From NCBI GenBank assembly GCA_028285185.1, contig JANQQD010000106.1, positions 1 through 24,000 of the forward strand: a stretch of 24,000 bases of DNA, written 5' to 3'. The notes beneath the pieces are model-generated. The model ran no database searches, had not been told where the DNA came from, and saw nothing but the letters and a program-made list of their open reading frames with translations. Position numbers and translations under genes: made by a program. Source of the stretch: Anaerolineae bacterium (lineage in GTDB: Bacteria > Pseudomonadota > Alphaproteobacteria > DSM-16000 > Inquilinaceae). Of this stretch, positions 358 through 23,081 are shown piece by piece (within the stretch, counting starts at the first letter, position 1; every line of letters starts with the position of its first letter).

Positions 358-1242
358 CTACGCTTGGGCGTAGACGATGTCGTACAGGTGCGCGGAGGTC
401 AGGAATCCGATCACCTTGTGCAGCGACGACAACTGCGTGGACGGCGGAAAGCGGATGTCGCCTTCCGGGTTGTGACCGATCAGATCGCCGCGGTCGGTTC
501 TGGCGACAGCCACGAACAGCGGGGACCACGACCAAGTGTTCACGACGGTGTCGCCGAGCCGAATGGACTTCGTGGGGTCCACGAGAGCCAGCGCCTCCAG
601 ACCGAGGGGTTGGGGCGCTGCCGTGGAACTGAGGAGCACGCCATAGCCCATGGCGCTCAGTTCGAACTGGGACGACAAGACCACTGTCGCAGTGTCATCG
701 GCAGACAGTCCCACGCCTTCGAATGAGCTGGAAAAGTAGCAGCGGTATCCACGGGTTCCGTCATGCGCCCTTTCGACCGCGGCGCTGGCTCCCGGGACCA
801 TCATCGCCACATCCGCCGGATCGAAATCCAAGATCTTCTGCAAGGTGACCAGATCGACGTCGTAGCAGCGCACCAGGCACTTGATGTGCCTGTAGGTGAG
901 CTTGCGGGAGCCGTTCTCCAAGCGGCTCAGCTCCGACTTGGAGATACCCGACATTTCGGCCAACCGGTCCAGCGTCAGACCAACGCGTTGGCGCAGCCAC
1001 GCCAGACGTTCGCCTTGTGACCGTGTGCAGGCTTCGATGCAGTCCACGTCGGGCTCGTGCGCCAAACCTTGCGATTGATACCAAACGACAGCAGGCCTTC
1101 GACCCGAGGAGGCCGTCGCCGGGGCGACTCTACTCTGGGAAAGATCGGCTCGCGACATAAACCAATCGGAGCCCTGGCGTGTGCTCACGTGCTTCGTCTC
1201 CGTCATTTGGGTTGGTGCCTGTGGCAGACTGCCACATCGCAT
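358..1242 (-). CDS. XRE-family helix-turn-helix transcriptional regulator with a C-terminal LexA/CI (peptidase S24)-like domain; true start uncertain
   Basis: HTH_XRE signature: LAWLRQRVGLTLDRLAEMSGISKSELSRLENGSRKLT. By eye the C-terminal half aligns to the S24 beta-barrel: ...LALVDPTKSIRLGDTVV...GHNPEGDIRFPP...LHKVIGFL. The first ~65 codons look non-protein-like and overlap ORF 1130-1426. Alternative starts are ATG 1158 or GTG 1047. Confidence 0.7.
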   Translation of the reverse strand: MRCGSLPQAPTQMTETKHVSTRQGSDWFMSRADLSQSRVAPATASSGRRPAVVWYQSQGLAHEPDVDCIEACTRSQGERLAWLRQRVGLTLDRLAEMSGISKSELSRLENGSRKLTYRHIKCLVRCYDVDLVTLQKILDFDPADVAMMVPGASAAVERAHDGTRGYRCYFSSSFEGVGLSADDTATVVLSSQFELSAMGYGVLLSSTAAPQPLGLEALALVDPTKSIRLGDTVVNTWSWSPLFVAVARTDRGDLIGHNPEGDIRFPPSTQLSSLHKVIGFLTSAHLYDIVYAQA

Positions 1243-1540: not shown

Positions 1541-2305
1541 TCAGGGGCACTCGATCAGGCCTAAGACGACGGCTTTGACAGCCGCGTGCGCCCTTGTCTG
1601 GGCGTTCAGCTTGTACATGCCCGATCGGATGTGGACGTTGACCGTATCTTCCGCGATTCCAAGGATCGTCGCAATGTCGCAGCTGACCTTGCCGGCGGCG
1701 ACCCACTGCAGGCATTCCCTCTCTCGCGCCGTCAGCCGGGGGGAAGTGTCGCTCAAGGTCTGAACCTGCGTTTCCATCAGCATGCGCGCCCGCTCGTGCA
1801 GGTGGAGGGCGAGGGTGGTCAATGCCTCTCTGCCCAGGCGCAACGATGCAGCTCTCTCTTGTGTCGTGCCGTCGGGGACGACGGAGAAGACCGCGAAGTA
1901 GCCGAGCGCATGGATGGGTACGGAGAAGCCGTCGATGATCCCGAACTCGGATGCTTCGTTGAAGACCGTCGCGCTGCCCCTCGTAATCGCCTCCGACTCA
2001 AACAGCCGCCAGGCGAACGGGAGGACGGAGCTGCGTGATCTGACATGCACCAGGTCCTGTTCCAGGTATCCGCGCTCGACGTAGCGTTCCAACCATTCCT
2101 TCGGGTAGTCTGAAATAAACGCGAGCAATGGATCTCGATATCCGTCGACCCTCACAAGATGATAGGTGAGTTTCTTGAATCCGATTTCGCTGATGTACTG
2201 GGAAGCTGTCTGCTCAAGCTCCTCCATATTTTGGCAACTTGCTATGCGGTTGATGATATTTTCAGGTACTGTATAGCACCAAGAAGGTTGCAATATTCCA
2301 GGCAT
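1541..2305 (-). CDS. luxR: LuxR-family quorum-sensing transcriptional regulator (N-terminal autoinducer-binding domain plus C-terminal LuxR/GerE HTH)
   Basis: 254 aa. The autoinducer-binding motif DYPKEWLERYVERGYLEQDLV...LPFAW...GIIDGFSVPI matches TraR Y53, W57, Y61, D70, W85 and G113 with identical spacing. C-terminal HTH: LTARERECLQWVAAGKVSCDIATILGIAEDTVNVHIRSGMYKLNA. It is divergent from the LuxI-containing ORF. Confidence 0.93.
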   Translation of the reverse strand: MPGILQPSWCYTVPENIINRIASCQNMEELEQTASQYISEIGFKKLTYHLVRVDGYRDPLLAFISDYPKEWLERYVERGYLEQDLVHVRSRSSVLPFAWRLFESEAITRGSATVFNEASEFGIIDGFSVPIHALGYFAVFSVVPDGTTQERAASLRLGREALTTLALHLHERARMLMETQVQTLSDTSPRLTARERECLQWVAAGKVSCDIATILGIAEDTVNVHIRSGMYKLNAQTRAHAAVKAVVLGLIECP

Positions 2306-2643
2306 TTCGCACTCTGTCCATTAACTCAACGCCTGATCCCGTCGGCATCAGCTAGCCGAAGCGGCGGGCGGCATGGTCCCAGATCCTCTGCGTCCAACCC
2401 CGTCACCGTCCATCCTACGACTTTCGCGACGAGTAAATTCCCCATCATACCCGATATCCCTAGATTTGCGAAATCAGTGTCTGCAACGGCGTTGAGGTTC
2501 TTTCGGCAGTCAACACCAGAAAATAAAAGGGATTTTTCCCAAATACGAAATTTATTGCGTTATCTCACAAATAGGCGAGATTCATCCCGCTAAGCGTATA
2601 CGAAAGTATCGGCGTGGCCATCCTTACCAATTGGAGCTTCGCC
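2306..2643. promoter_or_regulatory. divergent luxR / P450-luxI intergenic promoter region (AT-rich)
   Basis: 338 bp between divergent start codons. Direct count gives 37% GC over 2511-2610. GGAG at 2633-2636 lies 7 nt upstream of ATG 2644. Short dyads are present: GATTT-GCG-AAATC (2463-2475), CAAC-GGC-GTTG (2484-2494), an imperfect 18-bp dyad TCTCACAAATAGGCGAGA (2563-2580) and CGTATACG (2595-2602). No convincing 20-bp CTG-N10-CAG lux box was seen by eye. Confidence 0.5.
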
Positions 2644-4674
2644 ATGTCGACGATCGCGCTGGGGTCACAAAACGTCGAAGGGTGTTTCGCAGACAGTGGG
2701 CCGCGGGAGATCCGCGGATTGCCGTTCCTGGGAGTGCTGCTGAACCTGCGCAAGGATCCGCCAGCCTTCTTGATGAATTGCGCCCGCGAACACGGGCCCA
2801 TCGTGCCGATGCGCCTGGGCGCACATCGGGCCTGGCTTGTGGCCCATCCCGATGGCCTGCAGCACATCCTCCGCGACAACGCCACCAACTATGTCAAGAC
2901 GCGGTTCGCTGAGAAACTGAAACCGCTGCTGGGCAACGGTGTCGCCACATCGAACGGTGAGACCTGGGCCGCAAGCCGGCGTGTCATCCACCCAATGCTG
3001 AAGCCGACGGAAGTCGAGGCGTTGCTGTCGCAGATCGACAGCGAGGCGACAAAGGTCGCGGACGAATGGGCGGCCGGACCAACCCTGCAGGATCTCAGCC
3101 GAAAGTCGTGCGAAATGACCCTTCGGGTGATCGCCCGCACCATGCTTGGGGCGGAGACTTCTGACACGGCCGAGCGCGTTGTCCGTGCCATGGACGAAGT
3201 GCAGGAGGGGATCTCGCAGCGGATCTGGTCGCTGTTCTCTTTCACCGAGAAGCTGCCCACCGCGCGCAATCGCGCTTTCGATGCCGCCTGCGCGGATGTG
3301 CTGGAACTGGTTCTGGAGACGATCCGCCACCGCCGTGCCAATCCGGGGCCGCGCGACATGCTGGCCGCGCTGTTGGAGGCGAAGGACGCCGAGGGGCGCC
3401 ACTTCTCCGACGAGCAGGTGCGCGACGAGATCATGACGATCTTCGTCGCCGGGCACGAAACGACGGGCAACACGCTCGCCTGGACCTGGGAGGTCATTGC
3501 CCGCAACCCCGAGATCCAGCGCCGGCTGCGCGAGGAGTTGCTGGCGAATGTTCCGACGGACTGCACGCCGAGCCTCCAGACCCTGCGCGGGCTTCAGTAT
3601 ACCCAAGCGGTCCTGCAGGAAGTCATGCGCCTGCGGTCGAGTGCCTGGTGGTTCGCGCGCACGGCCGTGGCCGACGACGAGGTCATGGGCCACCACATCA
3701 AGGCTGGCGACAGCATCATCGTCTCTCAATATGTGACGCATCGCCTGGAGGAGTTCTGGCCGGATGCGGAAACCTTCGATCCGGAGCGCTTTCTCGGCAA
3801 CAAGCCGGCGCACAAATTCTCGTACATTCCGTTCGGTGCCGGGCAGCGCACCTGCCCCGGCGGCCATTTCGCAATGGCCGAGATGTCGCTGGCTCTGGCG
3901 CGCGTCCTGATGCGGCTTGACCTCGCTCCGGCGACGTCAAAGCCCAGGGATTACCAGGCGCTCGTGACCCTTCGGCCGAAGGGCGGCATGCCGATCCGCA
4001 CGCGGCCCTACCGCTCTGCGATTTGGGTCAAGCAGAGCGATGTGGGCGGCCACGCGCTGCTCGATGCGGCCTTGCGGCTTCGGCGCGAGGTGTTCGCGGA
4101 GAAGCTTGGATGGCCCCTGCTGGTGGACGCTGAAGGGCGCGAGCGGGACCAGTTCGACACCGACGATGCGAGCTATCCGATCATCCTGGCCGGTGGGCGG
4201 ATCAAGGCTTGCGCGCGCACCTTGCCGGCGGGAAAGCCCACTCTGCTCTATGAGGTGTTTCCGCATCTTGTGGAGGATCCCGGCGCCAAGCGCCCGCTGC
4301 GCAACATCTGGGAGGGGGCGCGGCTCGCCACTTGCCCGCGGGTCACGGCACGCGAGAGCATGGAATGGTGTCGTGAACTGCTCTATCAATCAGTGCTGCA
4401 GGCGATGCGGGAAGGCGTCACCCATATCCTGACGGTGTCCGATCCGGTGCTGGAGCGGGTATTGATCCGTGCCGGGGCAAGGCCCAAGCGGTTGGGGCCT
4501 GTCATGCGCGACGCCAACGGCTTCGAGACGCTGGGATTGCGAATCGCGTGCGACTTTGAGACCGCGCATTCCCTTTGCGGCACTGATCCGGCCTTCAGCC
4601 GGCTGGACAGCATGGTCGTTTTTGGGCGCCGTGCGGCAGAGGCTGTGCCACCATTGGAGACAAGGGTTGCATAG
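2644..4674 (+). CDS. fusion protein: cytochrome P450 monooxygenase (N-terminal ~465 aa) joined to a LuxI-type acyl-homoserine-lactone synthase (C-terminal ~215 aa)
   Basis: One uninterrupted frame. The ORF track starts at GTG 2614, but ATG 2644 has the better RBS. P450 motifs (numbering from 2614): I-helix FVAGHETTGNT (aa 277-287, nt ~3442-3474), ExxR EVMRLR (aa 336-341), FDPERF (aa 388-393) and heme loop FGAGQRTCPGGHFA with Cys414 at nt 3853-3855. LuxI domain from ~aa 470 (nt 4021): LRLRREVFAEKLGW (R490, F494, W500), GRERDQFD (E510, D512, D515), CARTLP (R535) and IWEGARLA (E567, R570). These match the invariant LuxI-family residues in order and spacing. Confidence 0.93.
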   Translation: MSTIALGSQNVEGCFADSGPREIRGLPFLGVLLNLRKDPPAFLMNCAREHGPIVPMRLGAHRAWLVAHPDGLQHILRDNATNYVKTRFAEKLKPLLGNGVATSNGETWAASRRVIHPMLKPTEVEALLSQIDSEATKVADEWAAGPTLQDLSRKSCEMTLRVIARTMLGAETSDTAERVVRAMDEVQEGISQRIWSLFSFTEKLPTARNRAFDAACADVLELVLETIRHRRANPGPRDMLAALLEAKDAEGRHFSDEQVRDEIMTIFVAGHETTGNTLAWTWEVIARNPEIQRRLREELLANVPTDCTPSLQTLRGLQYTQAVLQEVMRLRSSAWWFARTAVADDEVMGHHIKAGDSIIVSQYVTHRLEEFWPDAETFDPERFLGNKPAHKFSYIPFGAGQRTCPGGHFAMAEMSLALARVLMRLDLAPATSKPRDYQALVTLRPKGGMPIRTRPYRSAIWVKQSDVGGHALLDAALRLRREVFAEKLGWPLLVDAEGRERDQFDTDDASYPIILAGGRIKACARTLPAGKPTLLYEVFPHLVEDPGAKRPLRNIWEGARLATCPRVTARESMEWCRELLYQSVLQAMREGVTHILTVSDPVLERVLIRAGARPKRLGPVMRDANGFETLGLRIACDFETAHSLCGTDPAFSRLDSMVVFGRRAAEAVPPLETRVA

Positions 4675-4735: not shown

Positions 4736-4832
4736 AGGCTTCTGGGTATATTGCAAGGCGCTTGCGATTTCTGCCATTCCTGGTAATGAGATGATGTTCT
4801 GGTATACAAAGCGAGGATGGACGCACGCTGCA

Positions 4833-5333
4833 ATGAGTACTGTCAAAGTCAAACGTCCCGTGGGAAGACCGAGGATCGACACGCCACATCCCATCGATGT
4901 GCATGTCGGCAGCCGCGTTCGTCTAAGACGTATCATGCTCGGATTGAGTCAGGAGCGGCTTGGTGACGCGGTCGGACTCACCTTTCAGCAGATACAGAAG
5001 TACGAACGAGGCGCCAACCGCATCGGAGCAAGCCGGCTCTTTCAATTGAGCCGTGTCCTCGATGTTCCGGTGTCGTTCTTCTTCGACGATGCGCCGATTG
5101 CAACCGACTCCGCAGGTGGCGGCGGTGCTGCAATGGGCCAGGCCAACGGCGATTCGGGCTCCGGCCTGCAGTCGAACGATCCGTTGGTGGCGCAGGAAAC
5201 TGCCGATCTGGTCGATGCCTATTACAACATCACCGATCTCAATCTGCGCAAAAGGGTCTATGACCTGACGAAGGCGGCAGGTGTCGTCGGACAGCAGGCC
5301 GGCGGTACGGACCAGAAGGCCCGGAAGGACTAG
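4833..5333 (+). CDS. XRE-family helix-turn-helix transcriptional regulator (conserved alphaproteobacterial type)
   Basis: Motif IDVHVGSRVRLRRIMLGLSQERLGDAVGLTFQQIQKYERGANRIGASRLFQLSRVLDVPVSFFF is the typical HTH_3 core of this family. The track ORF starts at 4791. ATG 4833 (MSTVKVKRP...) gives the usual short N-terminus, so the start is uncertain. Confidence 0.85.
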   Translation: MSTVKVKRPVGRPRIDTPHPIDVHVGSRVRLRRIMLGLSQERLGDAVGLTFQQIQKYERGANRIGASRLFQLSRVLDVPVSFFFDDAPIATDSAGGGGAAMGQANGDSGSGLQSNDPLVAQETADLVDAYYNITDLNLRKRVYDLTKAAGVVGQQAGGTDQKARKD

Positions 5334-5459: not shown

Positions 5460-6620
5460 TTATGCCGTTTGCGTCGTACAGTCTGCAAAGCGCCTGATGT
5501 CGAAGGCGTCAAGCGGCAGATTTCCGCGCTCGCCCGAGATCCGCTCAGCCAGGATGGCACCGACAATGGGGCCGAGCTGGAAGCCGTGGGCTGAGAAGCC
5601 GAACGCGTGGACTGCGTCCGGCGTCGTACGCGACGGGCCTATGACCGGCAGATCGTCCGGCATGCGGCCTTCGATTCCGGCCCAACAGCGCACAATTGTC
5701 GCACCGGCCATGATGGGGAAGATGTCGGCAGCCGTGGCGGCCGTCTTGGCCAGTTCCGGCAGCCTGAGCCTGGTGCCGGTGCCTCGATCGTCGACGCCGC
5801 CGCGCCGCCCCCCGCCGACAACCACCGTTCCGTTCTCCATCTGCTTGAACGACAGGGGCCGGCCGGCCGCACCGACAACGGCGCCGCAGAACTGAGGCAA
5901 CCGGCCGGTGACCAGCATCATCGGGGCTATGGGCTCTATCGGGACCGGCTCATCGAGCCACGCCGCGACCTCTCCGCCCCAGGCGCCGGCGCAGTTAACC
6001 AGGACGCCGCCGTCAAACGCCCCATGATCCGTATGCAGCCGGAAGCGACCGGTGGACCGGTCGATACCAAGTGCCCTGCAGCTTTCCACAATCCGTGCGC
6101 CGTGCCGTTCCGCCGCACGGCGGAACGCGGCCGTGGTCCGATAGGGGTCGGCAAAGCCGTCGCCCAGGGATGCCAGTCCGCCGACGCAGTGGGATGCGAC
6201 GGCCGGCAACAGCGATCGCAGCTGCTGGCGGTCCAGCAGCACCTCGTGGTCATAGCCATGGGCCCGAACGGAGTCGGCGCGGGCGGCAAGGGTGTGCAGG
6301 TCTGCCTCGGCCTCGGCCACCTTGACCTGGGGCGCGGCGCGGAAACCGCAATCGTCGCCCACCAGATCGGCGATGCGATGCCACATCTCCATGGCGGCCA
6401 TAGATAAGGGGATTTCCGCAATCGCGCGGCCGAGCCGCCGGACCCCGCCGGCATTGACGCCGGAGGCGTGGCGCCCGACCGTGTGCCTCTCCACGACGAT
6501 CACCGAGAGACCCTTTAGGGCGCAGTGGAGCGCCGTGGAGCAGCCGTGAATGCCGCCGCCGATCACGAGCACGTCGGCCGTGGCCAGGCTCGAACGCGCG
6601 CTCCGGGTCGTCGCAGTCAC
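5460..6620 (-). CDS. FAD-dependent oxidoreductase, DAO family (opine oxidase subunit B / sarcosine oxidase beta-like); last gene of the operon
   Basis: N-terminal dinucleotide fold VLVIGGGIHGCSTALHCALKGLSVIVVERHTVGRHASGVNAGGVR. C-terminal HAFGFSAHGFQLGPIVG. Paralogous to 15001-16134. GTG start overlaps the upstream stop (GTGA at 6617-6620). Confidence 0.9.
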   Translation of the reverse strand: MTATTRSARSSLATADVLVIGGGIHGCSTALHCALKGLSVIVVERHTVGRHASGVNAGGVRRLGRAIAEIPLSMAAMEMWHRIADLVGDDCGFRAAPQVKVAEAEADLHTLAARADSVRAHGYDHEVLLDRQQLRSLLPAVASHCVGGLASLGDGFADPYRTTAAFRRAAERHGARIVESCRALGIDRSTGRFRLHTDHGAFDGGVLVNCAGAWGGEVAAWLDEPVPIEPIAPMMLVTGRLPQFCGAVVGAAGRPLSFKQMENGTVVVGGGRRGGVDDRGTGTRLRLPELAKTAATAADIFPIMAGATIVRCWAGIEGRMPDDLPVIGPSRTTPDAVHAFGFSAHGFQLGPIVGAILAERISGERGNLPLDAFDIRRFADCTTQTA

Positions 6621-8020
6621 TGCACGGGGTCTTCCTCCGCTGCGAGCCCTGCCAACTCCATGAGCGGCAACGGTTTCAACGGCGGACGGATGCGATAGTA
6701 CCCGACATCGTCAAGGCCCACACCGCGGGTCTCGGCGATGATCTCGGCAACGGGAAGGCCACAGATGCGACCCTGGCAGGGACCCATGCCGCAGCGCAGG
6801 AAGGACTTGGCCTGGTTGGGGCCGGAACAGCCAAGCCGGACCGCCTCTCGGATGCGGCCGGCGCTGACCTCTTCACAGCGGCATACGACGACCTCATCGG
6901 CCGGGCGCAAGACATCCGGCGGCGGTTGGTAGAGCGCCTCCAACAACGGGCGAACGGCCCCCTCGCGCGCCAATGCCGCACGCATGGGTGCCGCTTGCCG
7001 GTCGCGCTCAGCAGACGACAGGCGATCCAACCTGTGCGCGATGTTCAGGCCCGCCAACCGGCCCTGCCATTCAGCCGCTACGGCACCGAAGATGCCACCG
7101 CCGTCGCCAGCGACCGAGACGCCGTCGACCGTTGTTGCCAACCAGTCGTCCAGCCTTGGCCGGAAACAGCGCTGGGACGCTTCCCAGACGTGCTCGCAGC
7201 CAAGCAGTCGCGTGAGCTGGACATTGGGCACGACACCCTGATGCAGCCCGATCACATCCGCTGCGACTCTTTCTGTCCGCCCTGCTTGGTCAAAGGTCAG
7301 GCCTGTTGCCCCGTCGCTACCATCGACCCTCAGGTTCGTGCAGCCGCGGTACCAGGGCACTCCGGAGTGTGCCAGGGTCCTCATCCAGCGGCGGCCTTTC
7401 AAGAGCGACCGCCAGCCTAAGAGAGCCCGCGGCAGGTGCCGGGCCGCCGATCGATAGGCCCGTCGCGACACCGTCTCGACGATGGCCGCTGGTGGCGCGC
7501 CCGCTTTCACAAGCTGGAGCGCCAGCAGCAGAAGAAGGGGACCGGAACCCGCCAGAACCGTAGGCACGCGAGGGACCAGGCCATCGGATTTCAGCAGGAT
7601 CTGCAGGGCGCCTACGGTCATCACGCCCGGCAAGGTCCAGCCCGGGATTGGCACTGGCCGTTCCAGCGCACCGCTGGCTATCAGCAGATGGCGGGCATGC
7701 AGGCCCTGCGAGCGGCCCTCGCGGCTGTAGTGGATCGTCAGATCCCGCGAGACGTCCCAGACCGTGGATCCCGGACGGTAGTCGAGCGGTGCATCGCGCA
7801 GGGCCTTGGCCAACCTGCCGCCAGCCGCATAGTCGGGGCCGAGAAGGGACAGGGTCTGCCGCCGCAGCGCCTGCATGGTCTCGATGCCGCGATAGATCTG
7901 GCCGCCCGGCATCTGCTGTTCGTCCAGCAGCACCACTGATGCGCCCGTGGCCGCAACCGTCTCGGCAGCGGCAAGGCCGGCCGGACCGGCGCCAACGATG
8001 GCGACGTCGGCGCTATCCAT
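6617..8020 (-). CDS. FAD/NAD(P)-binding oxidoreductase, OoxA / HcnB-like large subunit with BFD-like [2Fe-2S] motif
   Basis: VAIVGAGPAGLAAAETVAATGASVVLLDEQQMPGGQIYRG at the N-terminus. C-terminal Cys motifs VVCRCEEVSAGRIREAV and LRCGMGPCQGRICG. 467 aa. Its start overlaps the upstream stop by 8 nt. Confidence 0.9.
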   Translation of the reverse strand: MDSADVAIVGAGPAGLAAAETVAATGASVVLLDEQQMPGGQIYRGIETMQALRRQTLSLLGPDYAAGGRLAKALRDAPLDYRPGSTVWDVSRDLTIHYSREGRSQGLHARHLLIASGALERPVPIPGWTLPGVMTVGALQILLKSDGLVPRVPTVLAGSGPLLLLLALQLVKAGAPPAAIVETVSRRAYRSAARHLPRALLGWRSLLKGRRWMRTLAHSGVPWYRGCTNLRVDGSDGATGLTFDQAGRTERVAADVIGLHQGVVPNVQLTRLLGCEHVWEASQRCFRPRLDDWLATTVDGVSVAGDGGGIFGAVAAEWQGRLAGLNIAHRLDRLSSAERDRQAAPMRAALAREGAVRPLLEALYQPPPDVLRPADEVVVCRCEEVSAGRIREAVRLGCSGPNQAKSFLRCGMGPCQGRICGLPVAEIIAETRGVGLDDVGYYRIRPPLKPLPLMELAGLAAEEDPVQ

Positions 8021-8318
8021 CCGCCGCCACCTCCGCCGGGCCGTGCTGGCGACGCACCTGCATGCCGTCCCGAACCTCGATCATGCAGGCCTGGCGATTG
8101 GGCACGCCATCGACTTCCACCAGGCAATCGAAGCACACGCCCATCAGGCAATAGGGCGCACGCGGCGCGCCGCTGACGGGCGTGGTGCGGAAGGCGCCGG
8201 CATCGTGGACCAGCAGAGCAGCGGCCAGGCTGTCGCCGGCCTGCGCGTGTATGCTCTGGCCTTCGAACCATATGGTGATACCGGCGGGCCGCACCGCGTC
8301 GTCAATGCGCCGAAACAT
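8013..8318 (-). CDS. small (2Fe-2S)-binding subunit, HcnA / opine-dehydrogenase gamma-like
   Basis: ITIWFEGQSIHAQAGDSLAAALL...APYCLMGVCFDCLVEVDGVPNRQACM. I trimmed the 141-aa track ORF to ATG 8318 (MFRRIDD...). That gives ~101 aa, the usual size, and a 17-nt overlap with the upstream stop at 8302. Confidence 0.8.
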   Translation of the reverse strand: MFRRIDDAVRPAGITIWFEGQSIHAQAGDSLAAALLVHDAGAFRTTPVSGAPRAPYCLMGVCFDCLVEVDGVPNRQACMIEVRDGMQVRRQHGPAEVAADG

Positions 8319-9420
8319 CGAACCGTTGTCCAGTGAAGGCGGCAAAGGCGTTGCGGAAACTGCCGTCGGCGATCGCCGGCGCCAGGACACTGGCGTGGGC
8401 GGCCGCGAGCGTGACGCCGCTGTGGCAGGAGATGGCAAATGCGCCGGGATGCCGCTCCGACGCGTCGTAGACCGGGCAGCCGTCCGGCGTCATGACCCTG
8501 AGTGCACCCCAGGTGCGAACAACGCGCAGATGCGCCAGGGCGGGAAAGGTGCGCAGGGCGCGGGCGGCAATGTCCTCGGTTACGGCCACAGTCGTGCCCG
8601 TGTCGAAGCCCACATCCTCATGACTGTCGCCCAGCAGCACCGTACCTTCCGCCATCTGGCGAACATAAGTGGTCGGGACGTCCAGCCACGGTTGCGCCCG
8701 CTCAGTTACCAGGACCTGCCCCCGCTCCGGAGTGACCGGCACATCCAGACCGACCCAGGCGCCCAAAGGGCGGTTGGCCAGTCCCGCGGCCAGCACCAGA
8801 GTGCTTGCGCTGTAGACCTCCGCGCCGGAGCGGACCGAGAAGCTGGCGCCAGCGCAGTCGATCCTGTCGACGCGGCGGCCCGGAAGATAGGCTATGCCTT
8901 GCTCTTGGCCGGCCGAGTGCAGCGCCTGCAAGAGGGCCAGCGGATTGACGCAGCCGTCATGCGGACAAAACGTCCCGCCCACGACGGCGTCGCCGATACC
9001 GGGCAGGGATTGGCGCACCTCGTCGCGGTCCAGCACGCGGCAATCATAACCGTCCGGCCCGGCCTGGTTGTGCAGGCGCTTGATCAGGAGTGCGCGTGCT
9101 TCCAGCTCCGCCTCGCTCAGGCACAGATGGAACCCGCCTTGCCGCTGATAGGCGATGTCGCGGCCGGTCTCGCCAGCCAGCCGCTCCGCGAAGGCCGGCC
9201 ACAGATCCGACGAGCGCCGCGTCCAGGCGGCGTAGCCGTCGAGCGGCAGGCCCTTGCCCTGGACCCAGACCAGGCCGAAATTGCCGCGCGAGGCGCGCAG
9301 CGCCACGTCGCCTTCGTCCAGCAGGGCGACCGAGCGGCCGGCATCGGCAAGGCCCAGCGCGACGGCGGAGCCGACAAGGCCGCCGCCGACCACGATGGCG
9401 TCGTGTACCGTGCTGCCCAT
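8302..9420 (-). CDS. FAD-dependent oxidoreductase, DAO family (HcnC / D-hydroxyproline-dehydrogenase beta-like)
   Basis: AIVVGGGLVGSAVALGLADAGRSVALLDEGDVALRASRGNFGLVWVQGKG. 372 aa. It starts 2 nt after the ABC ATPase stop. Confidence 0.9.
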   Translation of the reverse strand: MGSTVHDAIVVGGGLVGSAVALGLADAGRSVALLDEGDVALRASRGNFGLVWVQGKGLPLDGYAAWTRRSSDLWPAFAERLAGETGRDIAYQRQGGFHLCLSEAELEARALLIKRLHNQAGPDGYDCRVLDRDEVRQSLPGIGDAVVGGTFCPHDGCVNPLALLQALHSAGQEQGIAYLPGRRVDRIDCAGASFSVRSGAEVYSASTLVLAAGLANRPLGAWVGLDVPVTPERGQVLVTERAQPWLDVPTTYVRQMAEGTVLLGDSHEDVGFDTGTTVAVTEDIAARALRTFPALAHLRVVRTWGALRVMTPDGCPVYDASERHPGAFAISCHSGVTLAAAHASVLAPAIADGSFRNAFAAFTGQRFDVSAH

Positions 9421-9422
9421 GG

Positions 9423-10425
9423 TTACGCCTGTGGGGCGGCTGCCGCAGCCTCACCGCCATGTTCCGGATCATAGAGGTGGCAGGCCACGCCGCGATCGCC
9501 GTCGATCGGCGTCCAGCGGGGGTACACGGTGCGGCACACCGCCATGGCATGCGGGCAGCGCGGGTGGAAGTGGCAGCCGCTGGGCGGTTTGACTGCCGAG
9601 GGCACCTCGCCTTCGATCCTGGTGAAGACGCTTTTGGTCGTCGGGTCCGGCACCGGCGACGCGTCGCGGAGCGTGCGGGTATAGGGGTGCAGCGGTTCGT
9701 TGAACACGTCCGGGATCGGGCCGATCTCCACGATCCGGCCGAGATACATCACCGCCATTTCCTGGCAGAAATAGCGAATGACGCCCAGATCGTGGGAGAT
9801 GAAGACGAAACTGAGGTCGTGGCTTTCCTTCAGCCGCTTCAACAGCAGCAGGATCTGCGACTGGATGGAGACGTCCAGACCCGACACAGGCTCGTCCGCT
9901 ACGACCAAGTCCGGCCCCAGGGCCAGGGCGCGGGCGATGCCGATGCGCTGGCGCTGGCCGCCACTGAATTCGTGCGGGAAGCGGTCTGCCGCTTCCGCCG
10001 GCATACCCACTTCGTCCAGCAGCACGCGCACGCGTTCGCGCGCCTCTGCACGGTCGGCGACACCGTGCACCAGCAGTGGTTCCGCCAGGGCGGCGCCGAT
10101 GCGCTTGCGCGGGTTCAACGACGAATAGGGGTCCTGAAAGACGATCTGCATACGCCGACGGAGGGATCGCATTGTAGCGGTGCCGGCATTCAGAACCGGG
10201 ACGCCGTCGAATTCCACGGATCCGCCATCCGGTTCGACCAGCCGCAAGAGGCAGCGGCCGGCGGTGGACTTCCCGCAGCCACTCTCGCCCACGAGTCCGA
10301 AAGCCGTGCCCTTGCGCACGGTGAACGAGATTTCGTCCAGTGCCCGCACGGTCACCGTCTTGGGGTTGGGAAACCCGCGCCGCACATGGAAGTGCTTCTT
10401 CAGGTCCGTGACCTGCAGGATGGGC

Positions 10426-10433
<8 letters not shown>
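9423..10433 (-). CDS. ABC transporter ATP-binding protein (DppF/OppF-like, peptide/opine/nickel family)
   Basis: Walker A GESGCGKST, signature FSGGQRQR, Walker B LVVADEPVSGLD, and a C-terminal oligopeptide-transporter Cys/His tail GCHFHPRCPHAMAVC. Start trimmed to ATG 10433 (MTEPILQVTDLKKHF). It overlaps the upstream stop as ATGACTGA. Confidence 0.92.
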
Positions 10434-11459
<1,026 letters not shown>

Positions 11460-11460
<1 letters not shown>

Positions 11461-12359
11461 CAGTCGGTGCGAGTCTTTGGATCGATCACGTCGCGCAACC
11501 CGTCACCGATCAGGTTGAGCGAGAAGACGACCAGCAGGATGGCAAGGCCAGGGAAGACGGAGAGCCACGGCGTGTCCAGGATGTTTTCGAACCCTTCCCG
11601 GATCATGCCACCCCAGGTCGGCGTCGGCGGCTTGACACCAAGCCCGATGAAGCTGAGCGAGGCTTCCACGCGGATCGCAGTGGCCAGCCAGAGCGAGCCC
11701 ATGACCAGGATTTCCGACAGGATGTTGGGCAACACATGCAGCACCATGATGCGCAGGTCGCCGAAGCCGAGCGCCCGGCACGCTTCGACGAAGTCCCGCT
11801 CTTTCACCACGATGGTCGGTGCGCGCGCGATGCGGGCGAAGGGGGGGATCGCGGTCAGCGAGATGGCGATGATCAGGTTCTGGATGCTGGGGCCCAGCAT
11901 GGCCACGATCACCAGGCCCAGGATTAGAGCAGGGAAAGCCAGCAGCACGTCCATCGCCTGCATGATCACGGCGTCGACGCGTCCACCGCGATAGCCGGCG
12001 TAGAGCCCGATGGCCGAACCGATGATCATCGCGGAGCCGATGGCGGCAACGCCTATGAACAGAGAGATGCGAGCGCCGTAGAGCAGGCGTGAGAAGATGT
12101 CCCGCCCGTAGCTGTCGTTGCCCATCCAGAATTCCGCACTCGGCCCGTCGAGGCGAGACAGGATGTTCTGTTCCAGCGGGTCATGCGGCGCGATGATGGG
12201 TGCCAGGAGCGCCAGCACCACCACGATCAGGAAGATGACCACGCCAACGGAGCTGAGACGGTTGGCGCGAAACGCCTTCAGCGCCTGGGCGATCAGCAGC
12301 GCACGTCCGGTCTTCGCCGGAAGAGGAGGAGGGGACCCGGCTTCGGCGGCGACGGTCAT
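11460..12359 (-). CDS. ABC transporter permease (DppC/OppC-like)
   Basis: Multi-pass hydrophobic protein with N-terminal ...APHDPLEQNILSRLDGPS and the family motif GNDSYGRDIFSRLLYGARISL. I trimmed the 551-aa track ORF to ATG 12359 (MTVAAEAG...), which overlaps the upstream stop as ATGA. Confidence 0.9.
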
Positions 12360-13297
12360 GAGTACTTCACCCGCGGGTCGATCATGCCATAGGTCAGGTC
12401 CGTCAGCAGGTTCACGATGATGATGATGAAGGTGTAGATCACCATCAGCCCCTGCAGCATGGTGTAGTCGCGCTGGCCCAGTGCGCCGACGATCAGCTTG
12501 CCCAGGCCGGGCCGGTTGAACACGATTTCCGTCAGCACTGAATTGCCGATCAGGATGCCGAGATAGAGCCCGACGACCGTGACAACCGGGATTAGCGCGT
12601 TGCGCAGAGCATGGATCCAGATGATGGACCGGTGCGGCAGGCCCTTGGCCTGTGCTGTGCGGATATAGTCTTCCCCCAACACGTTGAGCATGGAAGAACG
12701 CGTCACGCGCGTAATGTAGGCGGCCATGATCAAGCCGAGATTGATCGCCGGCAGCGCCAGGTTTTCCAGGCGTTCCAGCGGGTCGCTGCGGTCGCCCGCA
12801 CTGATCACCGGAAACCAGTTGAGATAGATGGAGAAGACCAGCAGCAGCAGGATCGCGGAGACGAAAGCGGGGAACGACAGCCCCAACAGCGAGCCGATAC
12901 GCGTCACATAGTCGATCAGGCGGTTGCGATGCAGTGCCGACCAGACGCCGAGCGGGATCCCGACGATGGCGCCCAGGATCAGCGAGGCGACCGTGAGATC
13001 GATGGTGTAGGGCAGAACGTTCGCGATCTCGCCCAGCACCGGCTGGCCGGTGACCATGGACGCGCCCCAGTCGCCGGTCACCGCGTTCCGCAGGAACTCC
13101 ACATACTGTTCCCACAGCGGCCGATTGAGGCCGAGGCGCTCGCGCAACGCAGTGATGGCTTCCTGGCTCGCCTGGTCGCCGAGGATCGTCTGCGCCGGGT
13201 CGCCGGGCACGATCCGTACCAGGACGAACACCAGCGTCATCACCGCCAGCAGTGTCGGCAGGGCATAGAACAGTCGACGCGCCACGTACGCCAGCAT
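12356..13297 (-). CDS. ABC transporter permease (DppB/OppB-like)
   Basis: MLAYVARRLFYALPTLLAVMTLVFVLVRIVPGDPAQ is the canonical DppB/OppB N-terminus. Also ...YIRTAQAKGLPHRSIIWIHALRNALIPVVT. 313 aa. Confidence 0.92.
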   Translation of the reverse strand: MLAYVARRLFYALPTLLAVMTLVFVLVRIVPGDPAQTILGDQASQEAITALRERLGLNRPLWEQYVEFLRNAVTGDWGASMVTGQPVLGEIANVLPYTIDLTVASLILGAIVGIPLGVWSALHRNRLIDYVTRIGSLLGLSFPAFVSAILLLLVFSIYLNWFPVISAGDRSDPLERLENLALPAINLGLIMAAYITRVTRSSMLNVLGEDYIRTAQAKGLPHRSIIWIHALRNALIPVVTVVGLYLGILIGNSVLTEIVFNRPGLGKLIVGALGQRDYTMLQGLMVIYTFIIIIVNLLTDLTYGMIDPRVKYS

Positions 13298-13328
13298 GGG
13301 CCGCGGCTACTCCTTGTTCAGGGAAGCA

Positions 13329-13360
13329 CGGATGGCCCGTCCGGTGGCGGGCGGGCCATC
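13329..13360 (-). promoter_or_regulatory. intercistronic stem-loop between the substrate-binding-protein gene and the permease genes
   Basis: Perfect 10-bp inverted repeat GGATGGCCCG (13329-13338) / CGGGCCATCC (13351-13360). It lies in the only sizeable internal gap of the operon (13298-13379). Confidence 0.45.
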
Positions 13361-13379
13361 CCGATTGTAGCCCGAAGGC

Positions 13380-14957
13380 TCAGTTGGTCACGAACTGTGT
13401 CTGCTCGGTGATCGCGGGTCCGAGCGTCAGCGATCCGGTCAGCTCGTAGCCCAGATCGAGGTAGTTGTGCCGCGCCCAGATCTGCAGATTCTCGTAGATC
13501 GGAATCGAGCAGAAATTTTCCATCAGCAGGCGCTGCGCGGTCTCCCACTGTTCGCGCTGCATGTCGGGATCGGTCTCGACACGGGCCGCGTCGATCTCGG
13601 CATCGGCGTCGCCACAGTGGGAGAAGTTGGTCACGCCGGACGGCGTGTTGACGATGCTGCGGGAGTGGTAGAACTGGGTCAGGTAGATGTCGGCGACGGG
13701 GAACCGCGCGGCCGAATAGTGCACGACCTGGCTCAGGTCTTCACGGATCTGGGCGTGGAAGGTGGCGTGCTCGACAACCTCAAGATCGATGTTGATGCCG
13801 GCGCGCGCCATCTGGGCCTGGAACACCTCCATGGTGCTCAGCATGCCCGGCAGGGCCGTGTGGATGACGGATACGGTGATGCCGTCCGGATGGCCGGCTT
13901 CCGTCAGCAGCTCGCGCGAACGGTCCAGGTCGAAGGCCGGCATCAGCTCGCTCATGTCGGCGAAGCCGAGATAGCCCTGCGGCACGATCGACTGAGAGAC
14001 GCGGGCGGTATCGCGACCCTTGAAGTCCATGAACTCTTCCCGGTCGACCGCATGGGCCATGGCCTGGCGCACGCGGATGTCGTCCAGGGGCGGCGTGCTG
14101 GTGTTGAGGTGCATCACCGACATTTCCGCCGGCTCCATCACATGGACGGTGACGTCGGGAAGCTCGCGGATGCGCTCGACCCAGGTCTGATCCTGGCGGC
14201 CATAGATCAGGTCGATCTCGCCCGACTGGAAGGCCAGGTCGCGGGCGCTGTCGGACGGGATGTAGCGGTAGAGGATGCCGTCAAGCACCGGGGCGCCGCG
14301 GAAGTAATCCGGATTGGCGACCAGGCTCAGCGACTGCTGCGGGCGGTATTCATCGAACATGAACGGGCCGGTACCGATGGGCTGGTTCTGGAAGTCCTCC
14401 CCCATCTCTTCCGCAGCAGCGGCACACACGATGTTGCCACCCTGATAGTTGGTGACCAGGCCCAACAGGCTGGGCACGGGATGCGAGAGAACGATGCGCA
14501 CCGTGTAGTCGTCGACCGCTTCGATCGTCTCGAAGGCCTCGAAATCGCTGGAGAAGCTGGACCGGTCCGGGTCGGCGGCACGCTTGAGCGAGTAGACGAT
14601 GTCGGCAGAGGTCAGCTCGCCATAGCCGTGATGGCACTGGACGCCCTGGCGCAGATTGAAGGTCCATTCCAGGCCGTCGTCGCTGGCCGACCAGCTCTCC
14701 GCCAGGTCCGGCTCGATCGATTCCGGCGACGACGATCCCGGCGCGAACCGCACCAGGCCGCTGAACATCCAGCCGAACACGGCCTTGTCGACTGTGGTGG
14801 CCGACAGATGCGGGTCCAGCCGTCCGGCATCGGACGACGCCATGCCGATGTTGAGGATGTTGGTGTCCGGCCCCGCCAGGGCTGTGCCATCGCCAAGACT
14901 CAGGGTCAGGGCACCGGCGGCAAGCGTTGCCGCCGTTATCAGGCCTGTTCGTTTCAT
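13380..14957 (-). CDS. ABC transporter substrate-binding protein, family 5 (peptide/opine/nickel type), secreted
   Basis: Signal peptide MKRTGLITAATLAAGALTLSLGDGTALAGP, followed by a ~500-aa family-5 SBP body. Start trimmed to ATG 14957, which has GGGAGA 8 nt upstream on the minus strand. Confidence 0.92.
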   Translation of the reverse strand: MKRTGLITAATLAAGALTLSLGDGTALAGPDTNILNIGMASSDAGRLDPHLSATTVDKAVFGWMFSGLVRFAPGSSSPESIEPDLAESWSASDDGLEWTFNLRQGVQCHHGYGELTSADIVYSLKRAADPDRSSFSSDFEAFETIEAVDDYTVRIVLSHPVPSLLGLVTNYQGGNIVCAAAAEEMGEDFQNQPIGTGPFMFDEYRPQQSLSLVANPDYFRGAPVLDGILYRYIPSDSARDLAFQSGEIDLIYGRQDQTWVERIRELPDVTVHVMEPAEMSVMHLNTSTPPLDDIRVRQAMAHAVDREEFMDFKGRDTARVSQSIVPQGYLGFADMSELMPAFDLDRSRELLTEAGHPDGITVSVIHTALPGMLSTMEVFQAQMARAGINIDLEVVEHATFHAQIREDLSQVVHYSAARFPVADIYLTQFYHSRSIVNTPSGVTNFSHCGDADAEIDAARVETDPDMQREQWETAQRLLMENFCSIPIYENLQIWARHNYLDLGYELTGSLTLGPAITEQTQFVTN

Positions 14958-15000
14958 TTTTGCATCTCCCTGTTGCTGGTTACCCCGCCGCTGCATTGTC

Positions 15001-16134
15001 TCACGCCGCCCGATGGCCGGCGCGCTGGAAGCGGCTGATCGAGAAGGCATCGATCGGCGTCGACGTCCTTCCGTCCACCACCAGCTCGGTCACGATCTCC
15101 CCGATTGCGGGGCCGAGCTGGAACCCATGTCCGCTGAAGCCGAAGGCATGTACCAGCCCCGGCGTGGTTGTGCTGGGGCCGATCACTGGGATTTCGTCTT
15201 CGAAGTATCCCTCGATCCCGGACCAGCTTCGGATGACCGTGGCGTCGGCAGCCCAGGGCAGCGTCTCCGCCAGCCGCGCTGAGGCGGAGCAGGAGACGTC
15301 GGCCATCGGGCGTGCGACGATCCGTTCGCGGTCGGCCCATCCCTTACCGCCGCCGAAGATCAGATTGCCGCGCGGGATCTGACGGACATAAAGCCCGGCG
15401 CCGCACACGCCGATGTTGACCGGAAGCCGGTACGGCACCGGCTCGCTGACCAGCATGTTGGGCGCCATGACCTGGATCGGCGCACGCTCGCCGAACCACT
15501 TGGCCACGCGATCGGACCAGGCGCCGGCGACGTTGATGAGGCTGCCGGCGGTGAATCGGCCGCCGCGATCGGTTTCCAGCCGGAAGCCGGCCGCGTCCCT
15601 CGCGACACCGGTGACTGCCTCATGCTCGTGGATCTCCGCGCCGGCGCGGGCGGCGGCGCGGGCGAAGGCCGGGGCCACAAGGCGCGGATTGGCTTGTCCG
15701 TCGCTGGGGCAGAGGGAGCCGCCGACGACGCCCGAGACCATGCCTGGATACGCGTCGGCCAGGGCATTTGCCCCCATCATCCGGATTTCGAGACCGTGTT
15801 CAGCGGCCACGGCCGCAAAGGCCTCGAGGTCGGCCATCTGCGCGTCGTTGCGGGCCAGTTTCAGATGACCGGTGGCGGCGAATTCGCAGTCGTCCCCGAC
15901 GATGTCCGGCAGACGGGGCCAGATTTCTCGGGACCGGCGGCTGAGCGGCAGTTCAGCCGGATGGCGCCCCTGCTGGCGCACGCCGCCGTAGTTGACGCCG
16001 CTCGCCTGGCTGCCGACGGTGCGGCGCTCGAACAAGGCGACGGTGAGGCCGCGCTTGCGCAGGGCAAGTGCTGCGGAACAGCCGGCAGTCCCGCCGCCGA
16101 TGATCGCCACATCCACATGCCAGGCGGCGATCAT
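15001..16134 (-). CDS. FAD-dependent oxidoreductase, DAO family (opine oxidase subunit B-like)
   Basis: VDVAIIGGGTAGCSAALALRKRGLTVALFERRTVGSQASGVNYGGVR and HAFGFSGHGFQLGPAIG. Paralogue of 5460-6620. Start trimmed to ATG 16134, overlapping the upstream stop as ATGA. Confidence 0.9.
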   Translation of the reverse strand: MIAAWHVDVAIIGGGTAGCSAALALRKRGLTVALFERRTVGSQASGVNYGGVRQQGRHPAELPLSRRSREIWPRLPDIVGDDCEFAATGHLKLARNDAQMADLEAFAAVAAEHGLEIRMMGANALADAYPGMVSGVVGGSLCPSDGQANPRLVAPAFARAAARAGAEIHEHEAVTGVARDAAGFRLETDRGGRFTAGSLINVAGAWSDRVAKWFGERAPIQVMAPNMLVSEPVPYRLPVNIGVCGAGLYVRQIPRGNLIFGGGKGWADRERIVARPMADVSCSASARLAETLPWAADATVIRSWSGIEGYFEDEIPVIGPSTTTPGLVHAFGFSGHGFQLGPAIGEIVTELVVDGRTSTPIDAFSISRFQRAGHRAA

Positions 16135-17519: not shown

Positions 17520-17826
17520 GGGCGGTCTCTCCCGACCGGGTCAACACCGCCATCTTCGGTTCCACCGGCGTCGTGCAGGCACGTACGCGTCGGCCATCGG
17601 CCAGCCAGACCCAGCAGTCCTGGCAGGCCCCCATCCAGCAGAAGCCGGCGCGCGCACCGTCGCCGAAATCGCAGTCGCGCACGCGGCGGCCGGCCAGCAG
17701 CAGGGCCGAGAGCAGGACATCGCCTTCCAGCGCATCACAATCGGCGCCGTCGATGGAGATGCGGATGCGGGGGCGATCGAATTCGCCCAACCGTCGCAAC
17801 TGCCCACCTTCATCCGGCGTCGTCAT
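17512..17826 (-). CDS. small (2Fe-2S)-binding subunit, HcnA / gamma-like; first gene of the operon
   Basis: 104 aa. IRISIDGADCDALEGDVLLSALLLAG...GFCWMGACQDCWVWLADGRRVRACTTP, which has the same Cys pattern as 8013-8318. Confidence 0.85.
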   Translation of the reverse strand: MTTPDEGGQLRRLGEFDRPRIRISIDGADCDALEGDVLLSALLLAGRRVRDCDFGDGARAGFCWMGACQDCWVWLADGRRVRACTTPVEPKMAVLTRSGETALG

Positions 17827-17900
17827 GCCGCTGCCTGCCCCCGATGCGATCTTTGCGCTTTTGCGTCAGCTTGCGGGCAGCAGGCGAAGGCGTCAATAGG

Positions 17901-17957
17901 GCATCAGATTATATAAAATGAAAGATAGATGTTTCGTATTGTGGAATTTGAGTGTGT
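17901..17957 (-). promoter_or_regulatory. AT-rich candidate promoter/operator region for the 12-gene operon
   Basis: 30% GC by direct count over 17901-17960. There is a perfect TATAAT on the minus strand at 17908-17913, about 80 nt upstream of ATG 17826. The -35 is weak. TGGAATTTGA at 17942-17951 resembles the palindrome at 18818-18827. Confidence 0.4.
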
Positions 17958-22511: not shown

Positions 22512-22576
22512 ACGCAGTCCGCTGCATCGGCGCATGCCGACGCCCTCACGCGTTGATCACTCCCAAAGGAGAATGT

Positions 22577-22606
22577 GGGCCGCACCCGACGAGACGGCTG
22601 CGGCCC
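22577..22606 (-). terminator. candidate terminator hairpin after the VOC gene
   Basis: 8-bp inverted repeat GGGCCGCA (22577-22584) / TGCGGCCC (22599-22606) with a 14-nt loop, lying 9 nt downstream of the TAA at 22615-22617. On the minus strand it is followed by acattctcctttggg. Confidence 0.4.
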
Positions 22607-22614
22607 GGGCGGCG

Positions 22615-23010: not shown

Positions 23011-23081
23011 GCGGATGCTCTCCGGTGGTTGCGGCTGTAATGCCGTCGCCAGGGTGCTGCTAATCGGCTAGCGTTTCCACC

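Follow-up and report, generated by a model that had tools for sequence, protein, structure and literature searches.

A cytochrome P450 fused to a LuxI-type acyl-homoserine lactone synthase within a conserved three-gene cassette

Introduction

LuxI synthases are thought to set the identity of an acyl-homoserine lactone (acyl-HSL) signal solely through the acyl donor that they choose from the pool of the cell. The subject of this report is a gene in alphaproteobacterial DNA, the first 24,000 nucleotides of contig JANQQD010000106.1 (GenBank assembly GCA_028285185.1; this whole stretch of DNA is referred to below as the window), in which a cytochrome P450 and a LuxI-type acyl-HSL synthase are encoded as one polypeptide next to a gene for a LuxR-type receptor. 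That the product is a genuine single polypeptide with an intact P450 domain and an intact LuxI domain, and that it lies beside a LuxR, can be stated with high confidence. The component families are textbook ones; what is new is the architecture, a LuxI welded to an oxygenase within a conserved XRE-LuxR-synthase cassette. An earlier reading of the sequence letters, called here the original prediction, had proposed the fusion and its cognate LuxR but missed the conserved third gene of the cassette, an XRE-type regulator at 358-1242. Homologous loci and proteins are designated by L and P numbers, respectively.

The fusion gene and its two domains

A stop-free open reading frame (ORF), with no internal stops, spans 2614..4674 on the forward strand and offers two possible starts, an ATG at 2644 that gives a protein of 676 amino acids and an in-frame GTG upstream, at 2614, that would give 686. 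The ATG is taken to be the true start because a GGAG ribosome-binding site at 2633-2636 lies 8 nt 5' of it, because an alignment of orthologous loci shows the GGAG and the ATG to be kept and the GTG not, because homologues of the protein are 676 amino acids long, and because public collections hold the exact 676-amino acid product. The start coordinate of 2644 in the original prediction therefore stands, while its product length of 686 amino acids does not. The residue numbers Cys414 and R490 to R570 used below are counted from GTG 2614 (686-residue numbering); Cys414 corresponds to Cys404 in the 676-residue protein.

Both domains are recognized by profile searches. PF00067 (p450) matches residues 30-457 in the 686-residue numbering with an E value of 3.4e-83 and 280.4 bits against a cutoff of 22.8, and the match covers profile positions 1-457 of 462, a complete P450 fold. 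PF00765 (Autoind_synth) matches residues 481-628 in the same numbering (E 2.8e-19; 69.8 bits against a cutoff of 24). Among NCBIfam models, those for P450s fall on the N-terminus and those for TraI-type acyl-HSL synthases on the C-terminus, with no match at the equivalog level. The stop-free frame and these two Pfam matches, which the original prediction had put forward as its own first check, bear out its claim of a single uninterrupted P450 and LuxI polypeptide. The P450 motifs that it had named (AGHETT, EVMR, DPERF and FGAGQRTCPG, with its Cys414) are likewise all found at the positions in Table 1, and the LuxI residues R490, F494, W500, E510, D512, D515, R535, E567 and R570 are all in their places. 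Rather than forming a stand-alone protein of about 200 amino acids, the LuxI domain makes up residues 457-676 of the 676-residue protein, its C-terminal third.

Table 1. Coordinates of the fusion gene, its cassette, and unfused luxI-P450 operons; positions without a prefix are those of the window
Feature	Position	Strand	Basis or remarks
XRE-type helix-turn-helix regulator	358..1242	-	Pfam HTH_31, E 3e-11; start codon uncertain
LuxR-type receptor/transcription factor	1541..2305	-	Autoind_bind, E 1.1e-25, and GerE, E 6e-17; divergent to the fusion
Divergent intergenic control region	2306..2643		Lower G+C; two conserved blocks and ribosome-binding site/ATG in comparison with L004 and L005
Candidate operator, lux-box-like, imperfect 16-bp palindrome ACGAAATTTATTGCGT	2545..2560		Palindrome scan
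Second conserved upstream block TAGGCGAGATTCATCCC	2572..2588		Near-identical in the window, L004 and L005
P450-LuxI fusion gene	2644..4674	+	676 amino acids plus stop; ORF, Pfam, homologues, exact record
Cytochrome P450 domain	2701..3984	+	Pfam envelope
P450 I-helix, AGHETT	3448-3465	+	Motif
P450 ExxR, EVMR	3619-3630	+	Motif
P450 DPERF	3778-3792	+	Motif
Heme loop, FGAGQRTCPG	3832-3861	+	Cys414 codon 3853-3855
Junction, last P450 strand to LuxI residue 1	3985..4011	+	Gapless alignment, LuxI numbering, AlphaFold2 model
LuxI-type acyl-HSL synthase domain	4012..4581	+	PF00765, family profile, invariant residues
C-terminal tail with short conserved strand MVVFGRR	4582..4671	+	Alignment, predicted strand; subset of the family
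Unfused luxR-luxI-P450 operon	L012:4506-7374		P0025 P450, 38% identical; 4-bp overlap of luxI and P450
Unfused luxI then P450	L014:1945-5131		Intact LuxI, 136.7 bits; intact 465-amino acid P450
Unfused luxI then P450	L073:362-1364		Cut by contig end

Conservation of the fusion

A search of 5.8 billion clustered proteins, with matches from NCBI, ENA, JGI and Logan assemblies, returned 18 clusters that carry both domains, ranging from 96% to 41% identity with the window protein. Its occurrence in at least 17 independent assemblies puts the two-domain protein far beyond chance, and the family alignment used throughout comprises 17 fusions at 40-96% identity to the window protein. From ALVTLRP, the last strand of the P450, to the first LuxI motif, the 17 sequences align without a gap. 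Numbering from nucleotide 4012 reproduces the canonical LuxI positions R24, F28, W34, E44, D46, D49, R69, E101 and R104, and hardly any linker thus separates the C-terminus of the P450 from LuxI residue 1. The P450 motifs AGH[ED]TTG, ExxR and FxxGxRxCPG, the [E/D]-T acid-alcohol pair of the I-helix, and the LuxI signatures are each invariant across the 17 fusions, as are the catalytic and cofactor residues of both domains. Compared pairwise with the orthologues at 96% and 80% identity, the P450 domain has a ratio of nonsynonymous to synonymous substitution rates (dN/dS) of 0.04-0.16 and the LuxI domain one of 0.02-0.12, so purifying selection acts on both. That a sequencing or assembly error had joined two adjacent genes is refuted by this recurrence of the uninterrupted architecture in at least 17 independent assemblies (NCBI, ENA, JGI, Logan), by the invariant length of the junction, and by the low dN/dS across it, and its probability is negligible.

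An AlphaFold2 model built from the 17-sequence alignment has a mean predicted local distance difference test score (pLDDT) of 82 and a predicted template modelling score (pTM) of 0.85, and pLDDT reaches about 95 over junction residues 451-470, which argues for an interdomain arrangement that is fixed and not floppy. In the C-terminal tail (fusion residues ~647-676), the motif [MV]V[VL]FGRR is conserved solely in the sub-clades of the window protein, P0001 and P0002 and of P0008 and P0009; a strand is predicted with confidence at residues 655-660 (pLDDT about 93), and the tail may be packed onto one of the two domains.

In a rough neighbour-joining tree the P450 domains of the fusions are monophyletic, and the fusion event probably arose once. 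Within this clade the two domains are always fused. P0019, from locus L003 (ENA ERZ25073694 ctg124744), was considered as a case of naturally separate P450 and luxI genes and rejected: the frame changes inside the P450 C-terminus (query residues ~402-416), not at the domain border, and the contig also has a split dnaA, so the apparent split is a frameshift in a fused gene. The contig of P0020 (ERZ1426847), a candidate for a natural two-gene version, was rejected as evidence since the same contig has a split luxR. Several genes in the L003 and P0020 assemblies appear frameshifted, and their gene calls are not usable as natural domain splits.

Rarity, carriers and naming

To gauge how rare the architecture is, all 1.84 billion representatives at 50% identity were scored with a profile built from the 17 fusions. 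Three two-domain proteins were recovered (P0005, P0009 and P0015), together with two frameshifted fusions and one fragment (P0248); the remaining matches are ordinary P450s or tandem multi-P450s. P0122-P0125, high scorers among the representatives, were considered as alternative fusions and set aside as tandem multi-P450 proteins. P0122, P0125, P0133 and P0260 (1356-1589 amino acids) are giant proteins of three or four tandem P450 domains, unusual in themselves and unrelated to the fusion. In JGI metagenome contigs, the profile of the LuxI domain picked out 80 LuxI loci, one of them a fusion (L013). When 5.8 billion proteins were searched with the LuxI domain by itself, one distant match was obtained (P0121, 31% identity), which is uninformative; a pattern scan of genome contigs used narrow patterns and found three loci, and is not usable for counting.

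The named carriers are one Rhodospirillaceae metagenome-assembled genome (MAG), two Alphaproteobacteria MAGs, and the cultured halophile Limimonas halophila. Public records name the protein as 'cytochrome P450' alone (MCB9947650.1; WP_090020176.1 / A0A1G7S619, the latter from L. halophila), and the automatic JGI name is 'cytochrome P450/N-acyl-L-homoserine lactone synthetase'. No P450-LuxI fusion or luxI-linked P450 was found in the full text of 8 million searchable papers and preprints, among which subscription journals are thinly covered, so that this absence is not proof. With 3-6 clusters among the 1.84 billion representatives and no paper in that literature, the expectation that the fusion would prove rare and without a characterized member has held up.

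The P450 domain

The N-terminal domain has the whole-fold profile match, the heme-thiolate loop, the ExxR motif and the I-helix acid-alcohol pair of a cytochrome P450, and Foldseek assigns it a probability of 1.00 to many P450 structures. The closest solved P450 is CYP170A1 (3dbg; 218 bits, full length), the albaflavenone monooxygenase of Streptomyces coelicolor, followed by CYP184A1 of Streptomyces avermitilis (7wzl; 206 bits), both at about 31% identity. These two share with the window domain a 'eukaryote-like' P450 class that also holds CYP102, CYP97, CYP46 and CYP51; they differ from it in being stand-alone enzymes with no tie to signalling. CYP184A1 is a fatty-acid-metabolizing epoxidase that has been crystallized with oleic acid (PMC11214959). 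BM3 (CYP102A1) matches residues 210-448, the C-terminal half, with 114 bits. The domain does not have its best full-length similarity to CYP102 and has no fused reductase domain, as would be expected of a CYP102 member, and its score of 290.8 bits against the CYP170A1 equivalog model NF051859 is well below the cutoff of 700. The label 'CYP102/CYP4-like' given in the original prediction is thus apt for the broad P450 class and, by way of CYP184A1, for a fatty-acid flavour, but not for the nearest relatives, which are CYP170A1 and CYP184A1.

CYP102A1 is nonetheless of interest as a P450 that acts on acyl-HSL chains, which shows the chemistry to be feasible; it hydroxylates acyl-HSLs at omega-1 to omega-3, an activity regarded as quorum quenching (PMC3355433). 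In contrast to the window protein, it is fused to a reductase and not to a synthase, it acts on foreign signals, and its match is weaker and partial. A standalone relative of the window P450, P0023 (38% identical), is the last gene at L011:3066-7494, after genes for a thiamine pyrophosphate (TPP) enzyme and a FabH-like 3-ketoacyl-acyl carrier protein synthase III (KAS III). Judging by this operon, P450s of that branch may act on a lipid or a polyketide-like compound.

The LuxI domain and its acyl donor

The residues that define the LuxI family (R24, F28, W34, E44, D46, D49, R69/70, E101 and R104) are present in the C-terminal domain in the expected order and spacing, and they do not vary in alignments of 10 and of 17 sequences. 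Against the PDB, the LuxI family profile matches acyl-HSL synthases alone: TofI (124.7 bits, E 3e-35), LasI (104.6), RpaI (86.1), BjaI (72.6), 6wns (57.9) and EsaI (55.4). It could be argued that the domain is instead a FeeM/NAS-type N-acyl amino acid synthase, a GNAT related to the LuxI family, and that its product is not an HSL, given that some family members weakly match PF21926 (FeeM) and PF13444 and that the Pfam LuxI score of 69.8 bits is modest. The canonical position of every LuxI invariant residue, the restriction of the PDB matches to acyl-HSL synthases with E values down to 3e-35, and the LuxR with HSL-contact residues that always adjoins the gene speak against such an enzyme, and make it a very remote prospect.

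Several features bear on the acyl donor. LasI residues K150, R154 and R161, at the proposed docking helix for acyl carrier protein (ACP), align with basic residues of the fusions, namely R/K149, an invariant R153, and mostly R160. The Trp-Trp 'indole platform' associated with a preference for acyl-CoA consists of W142/W143 in BjaI and W146/W147 in RpaI (PMC8188788). No family member has Trp at these positions, where the window protein and most fusions have Val146 and Leu/Met147 (DPV[LM]E), and the domain therefore lacks the mark of the acyl-CoA-dependent BjaI/RpaI subgroup. An acyl-ACP donor is favoured, though not proven, because the Trp-Trp platform is absent, TofI and LasI score highest, and the basic residues align. 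Similarity alone does not decide between ACP and CoA, as EsaI, also of the ACP type, scores lowest. The aryl- or acyl-CoA route of RpaI and BraI, which the original prediction had entertained, is disfavoured by the missing platform and by the best scores falling to the ACP-type TofI and LasI (PMC8188788). The Thr that determines 3-oxo signals is T140 in EsaI and T142 in LasI (PMC8188788); the window protein has Thr at this position, but no firm call on 3-oxo status is made because Thr, Ala and Ser vary across the family.

At window positions 4432-4446, the sequence TVSDP corresponds to LuxI-domain positions 141-145, and its Ser-Asp pair (143-144) is invariant in the 17 fusions. The equivalent of Asp144, which sits in a 'V[S/T]D' strand, is also kept in the LuxI of the unfused operon L012 (see below), while TofI has Thr-Phe at these two positions, LasI has Thr-Thr, and the CoA-type enzymes have x-Glu. 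The Asp places an acidic residue near the entrance of the acyl pocket, which could be a signature of LuxI enzymes that are partnered by a P450.

The TofI/TofR system of Burkholderia glumae and the LasI/LasR system of Pseudomonas aeruginosa have in common with the window the LuxI fold, its invariant residues, and a synthase gene that adjoins the receptor gene. They differ in that their synthases are free-standing proteins of about 200 amino acids without the Ser-Asp pair, whereas the window LuxI sits behind a P450 in a 676-amino acid protein; a constant third gene of the XRE type is also a feature of the window cassette. BjaI, RpaI and BraI resemble the window system in being alphaproteobacterial and in making unusual signals, and BjaI and RpaI have Glu at the position of Asp144. 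BjaI and RpaI differ in having the Trp-Trp platform and in their lower profile scores (RpaI 86 and BjaI 73 bits).

The three-gene cassette

The claim that a cognate LuxR lies next to the fusion is supported by the Autoind_bind and GerE matches at 1541..2305 on the reverse strand. The nearest solved structures of this protein are LasR, QscR and RhlR. The window LuxR has equivalents of LasR Y56, W60, D73 and W88, all four of which hold the lactone-amide head group, and its W71, D84 and W99 are invariant in six orthologues. With both domains and the HSL-contact residues in place, the protein belongs among the LuxR-type acyl-HSL receptors and is predicted to be able to bind an HSL head group. Across loci, the LuxR orthologues are 31-73% identical.

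The LuxR gene adjoins the fusion in 12 of 12 loci (the window, L001, L002, L003, L004/L005, L006-L010, L013, and the P0020 contig), and at every locus with enough flank the order is the same: fusion, divergent LuxR, then an XRE gene on the LuxR strand. An orthologue of the XRE gene, encoding 222-289 amino acids, holds this position in L001, L002, L003, L005-L010, L013 and the P0020 contig. The XRE orthologues are 26-67% identical across loci, and an alignment of six of them shows conservation of both the helix-turn-helix and a C-terminal domain, although the C-terminal ~150 amino acids have no Pfam match. The XRE protein, whose gene always accompanies that of the LuxR, may add a third regulator to the circuit; a role like that of RsaL is suggested by analogy only. 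Genes beyond these three vary from locus to locus, with a resolvase and parB near one of them; since everything beyond XRE, LuxR and the fusion differs between loci, the three genes make up a portable cassette.

The region between the divergent genes contains two conserved blocks (Table 1). The palindrome at 2545-2560 is kept in L004 and largely in L005, and the palindrome scan found others at a similar position in L003 (AGAGAAACATGTTTCTCT), L001 (AGAAACTTGTTTCT) and L002 (ACGGGAAAATTCCCGT). A single lux box common to all family loci was rejected, as the palindromes differ by sub-clade and the footprint is solid among close relatives only. No good sigma-70 match was found on the forward strand of 2306-2643, which fits an activator-dependent promoter for the fusion.

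Unfused luxI-P450 operons

Three operons from other metagenomes combine luxI with a P450 gene without fusing them (L012, L014 and L073; Table 1), an additional form of the partnership that the original prediction did not contain and that is also new. L012 was found through the standalone P450 relative P0025, and L014 and L073 through the JGI metagenome LuxI scan; in the other 77 of the 80 LuxI loci no P450 was found in the available flank, and many of these contigs are short. The LuxI of L012 is 36% identical to the LuxI domain of the fusion. As in the fusion cassette, a LuxI and a P450 of the same broad family (32-38% identical) go together beside a LuxR; here the two genes are co-transcribed, with that for the P450 immediately 3' of luxI. 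Unlike the fusion, the two are separate genes in the order luxI then P450, whereas the fusion has P450 then LuxI, and the XRE gene is lacking; like the fusion, these operons are uncharacterized. They link the two enzymes independently of the fusion.

Proposed function and alternatives

On balance, we favour the reading that the P450 oxygenates the acyl chain and that the cell secretes an oxidized acyl-HSL read by the cognate LuxR. The LuxI domain would ligate a fatty acyl group from acyl-ACP to S-adenosylmethionine (SAM), and the P450 domain would draw electrons from a housekeeping ferredoxin and ferredoxin reductase, as no redox partner is encoded nearby, and insert oxygen into the acyl chain by hydroxylation or epoxidation. 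Oxidation could take place before ligation, on an acyl-ACP such as BioI accepts, or later, on the acyl-HSL as it is formed, a type of substrate that BM3 can oxidize. Each released molecule would then be an oxidized acyl-HSL recognized by the LuxR, and the fusion, by enforcing 1:1 stoichiometry and proximity, would keep unmodified signal from leaking. Fatty-acyl chemistry is supported by the ACP-type LuxI scores, the relation to CYP184A1, and the P0023 operon with its KAS III gene; a monooxygenase role is supported by the intact O2-activating I-helix with its invariant acid-alcohol pair. A more specific form of the proposal can be offered tentatively: a two-step signal factory in which the chain would be oxidized while carrier-bound or held by LuxI, yielding in-chain or omega-oxidized (hydroxy or epoxy) acyl-HSLs of a class beyond the reach of any free-standing LuxI, a private channel, and a LuxR tuned to the oxygenated tail.

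Several observations weigh against an oxidized acyl-HSL. The nearest solved P450, CYP170A1, is a sesquiterpene oxidase and not a lipid enzyme, which leaves the substrate class unsettled. In the rough neighbour-joining tree, the P450s from the unfused operons are neither within the fusion clade nor sister to it; the partnership of luxI and P450 may thus have arisen repeatedly and could serve different chemistries. Neither a ferredoxin nor a ferredoxin reductase is conserved next to the fusion gene across the examined loci. The 2Fe-2S and flavoprotein genes downstream in the window were considered as a dedicated redox partner and rejected, as they form part of opine-oxidase-like clusters that other loci lack. 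The AlphaFold2 model was judged on its summary scores (pLDDT and pTM), which are silent on interdomain geometry, and sequence alone gives no view of the chemistry of the product.

P450 BioI (CYP107H1) works on acyl-ACP, and this precedent also lends itself to a different division of labour, in which the P450 would make an unusual acyl donor, for example by oxidatively cleaving a long acyl-ACP in the manner of BioI or by oxidizing an aromatic or terpenoid acid, and LuxI would ligate it, so that the novelty lies in the donor. The terpenoid oxidase as nearest solved P450 and the linkerless fusion, which would suit the hand-over of a carrier-bound intermediate, agree with such precursor supply. 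It is nevertheless unlikely: within the cassette, the examined loci share no acyl-CoA ligase or other enzyme that would activate a donor, the LuxI domain lacks the Trp-Trp platform that aryl- or branched-CoA donors require, and the P450 is not of the CYP107 type. Quite unlikely, too, is a P450 that inactivates the acyl-HSL of its own cell, as quorum quenching in cis that damps or resets the circuit. The oxidation of acyl-HSLs by CYP102A1 is indeed counted as quenching (PMC3355433), but a maker and a destroyer permanently locked together 1:1 would work to no purpose, in the unfused operons the P450 gene shares a transcript with luxI (and overlaps it by 4 bp in L012), and strong purifying selection on both domains together with co-inheritance with one LuxR suits a dedicated signal better. 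Known turnover enzymes, moreover, are separately regulated. A rigid junction that would permit allosteric coupling, and the lack of a redox partner encoded nearby, are what might be expected if the P450 were a heme-based sensor of O2, redox state or a gas that gates LuxI and leaves the signal unmodified; this is highly unlikely in view of the invariant I-helix acid-alcohol pair, ExxR and Cys loop, and of the unfused luxI-P450 operons, in which intramolecular allostery is impossible.

To return to the oxidized acyl-HSL, a parallel exists in another class of signals. The butenolide and gamma-butyrolactone autoregulators of actinomycetes receive P450 tailoring, for example by Cyp17 for avenolide and SrrO for SRB; this tailoring and the quenching activity of BM3 are the closest analogies to the proposed system. 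These P450s resemble the proposed system in being dedicated to finishing a diffusible signalling lipid, and differ from it in the class of the signal, in the AfsA-type synthase, and in being encoded by separate genes. No characterized precedent for tailoring built into an acyl-HSL synthase was found in the searchable literature, and the fusion would surprise quorum-sensing specialists. If the proposal is true, a built-in oxygenase would be a second way to diversify acyl-HSLs and predicts new signal structures; and because P450 turnover needs O2 and reducing equivalents, the identity of the signal could reflect the physiological state of the cell in addition to cell density. Surveys of quorum sensing that go by protein names overlook these proteins, because public records call them only 'cytochrome P450'. 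As a natural linkerless fusion of a P450 and a GNAT, the protein is of interest to enzyme engineering and to the design of orthogonal synthetic signalling channels, and the three-gene cassette is small and amenable to heterologous expression.

Neighbouring genes in the window

Directly 3' of the fusion gene, at 4791-5333 on the forward strand, lies a second gene of the HTH_3/XRE type; an ORF at 6886-7383 of L005 holds the same position, and none is found there in the more distant loci. Three long ORFs on the forward strand without a Pfam match (17316-17921, 17952-18794 and 22534-23040) are putative genes in high-GC DNA. Two paralogous opine-oxidase/HcnABC-like gene sets lie on the reverse strand at 5460-9420 and 15001-17519, with a DAO flavoprotein, a Pyr_redox_2 plus BFD 2Fe-2S protein, and a small Fer2_4 subunit. 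Between them, on the same strand (9423-15050), is an ABC transporter of the Opp/Dpp type, with two ATPases, a permease, and an SBP_bac_5 binding protein. The whole, absent from the more distant fusion loci and partly syntenic in L005, looks like an island for the catabolism of opines or amino acid derivatives.

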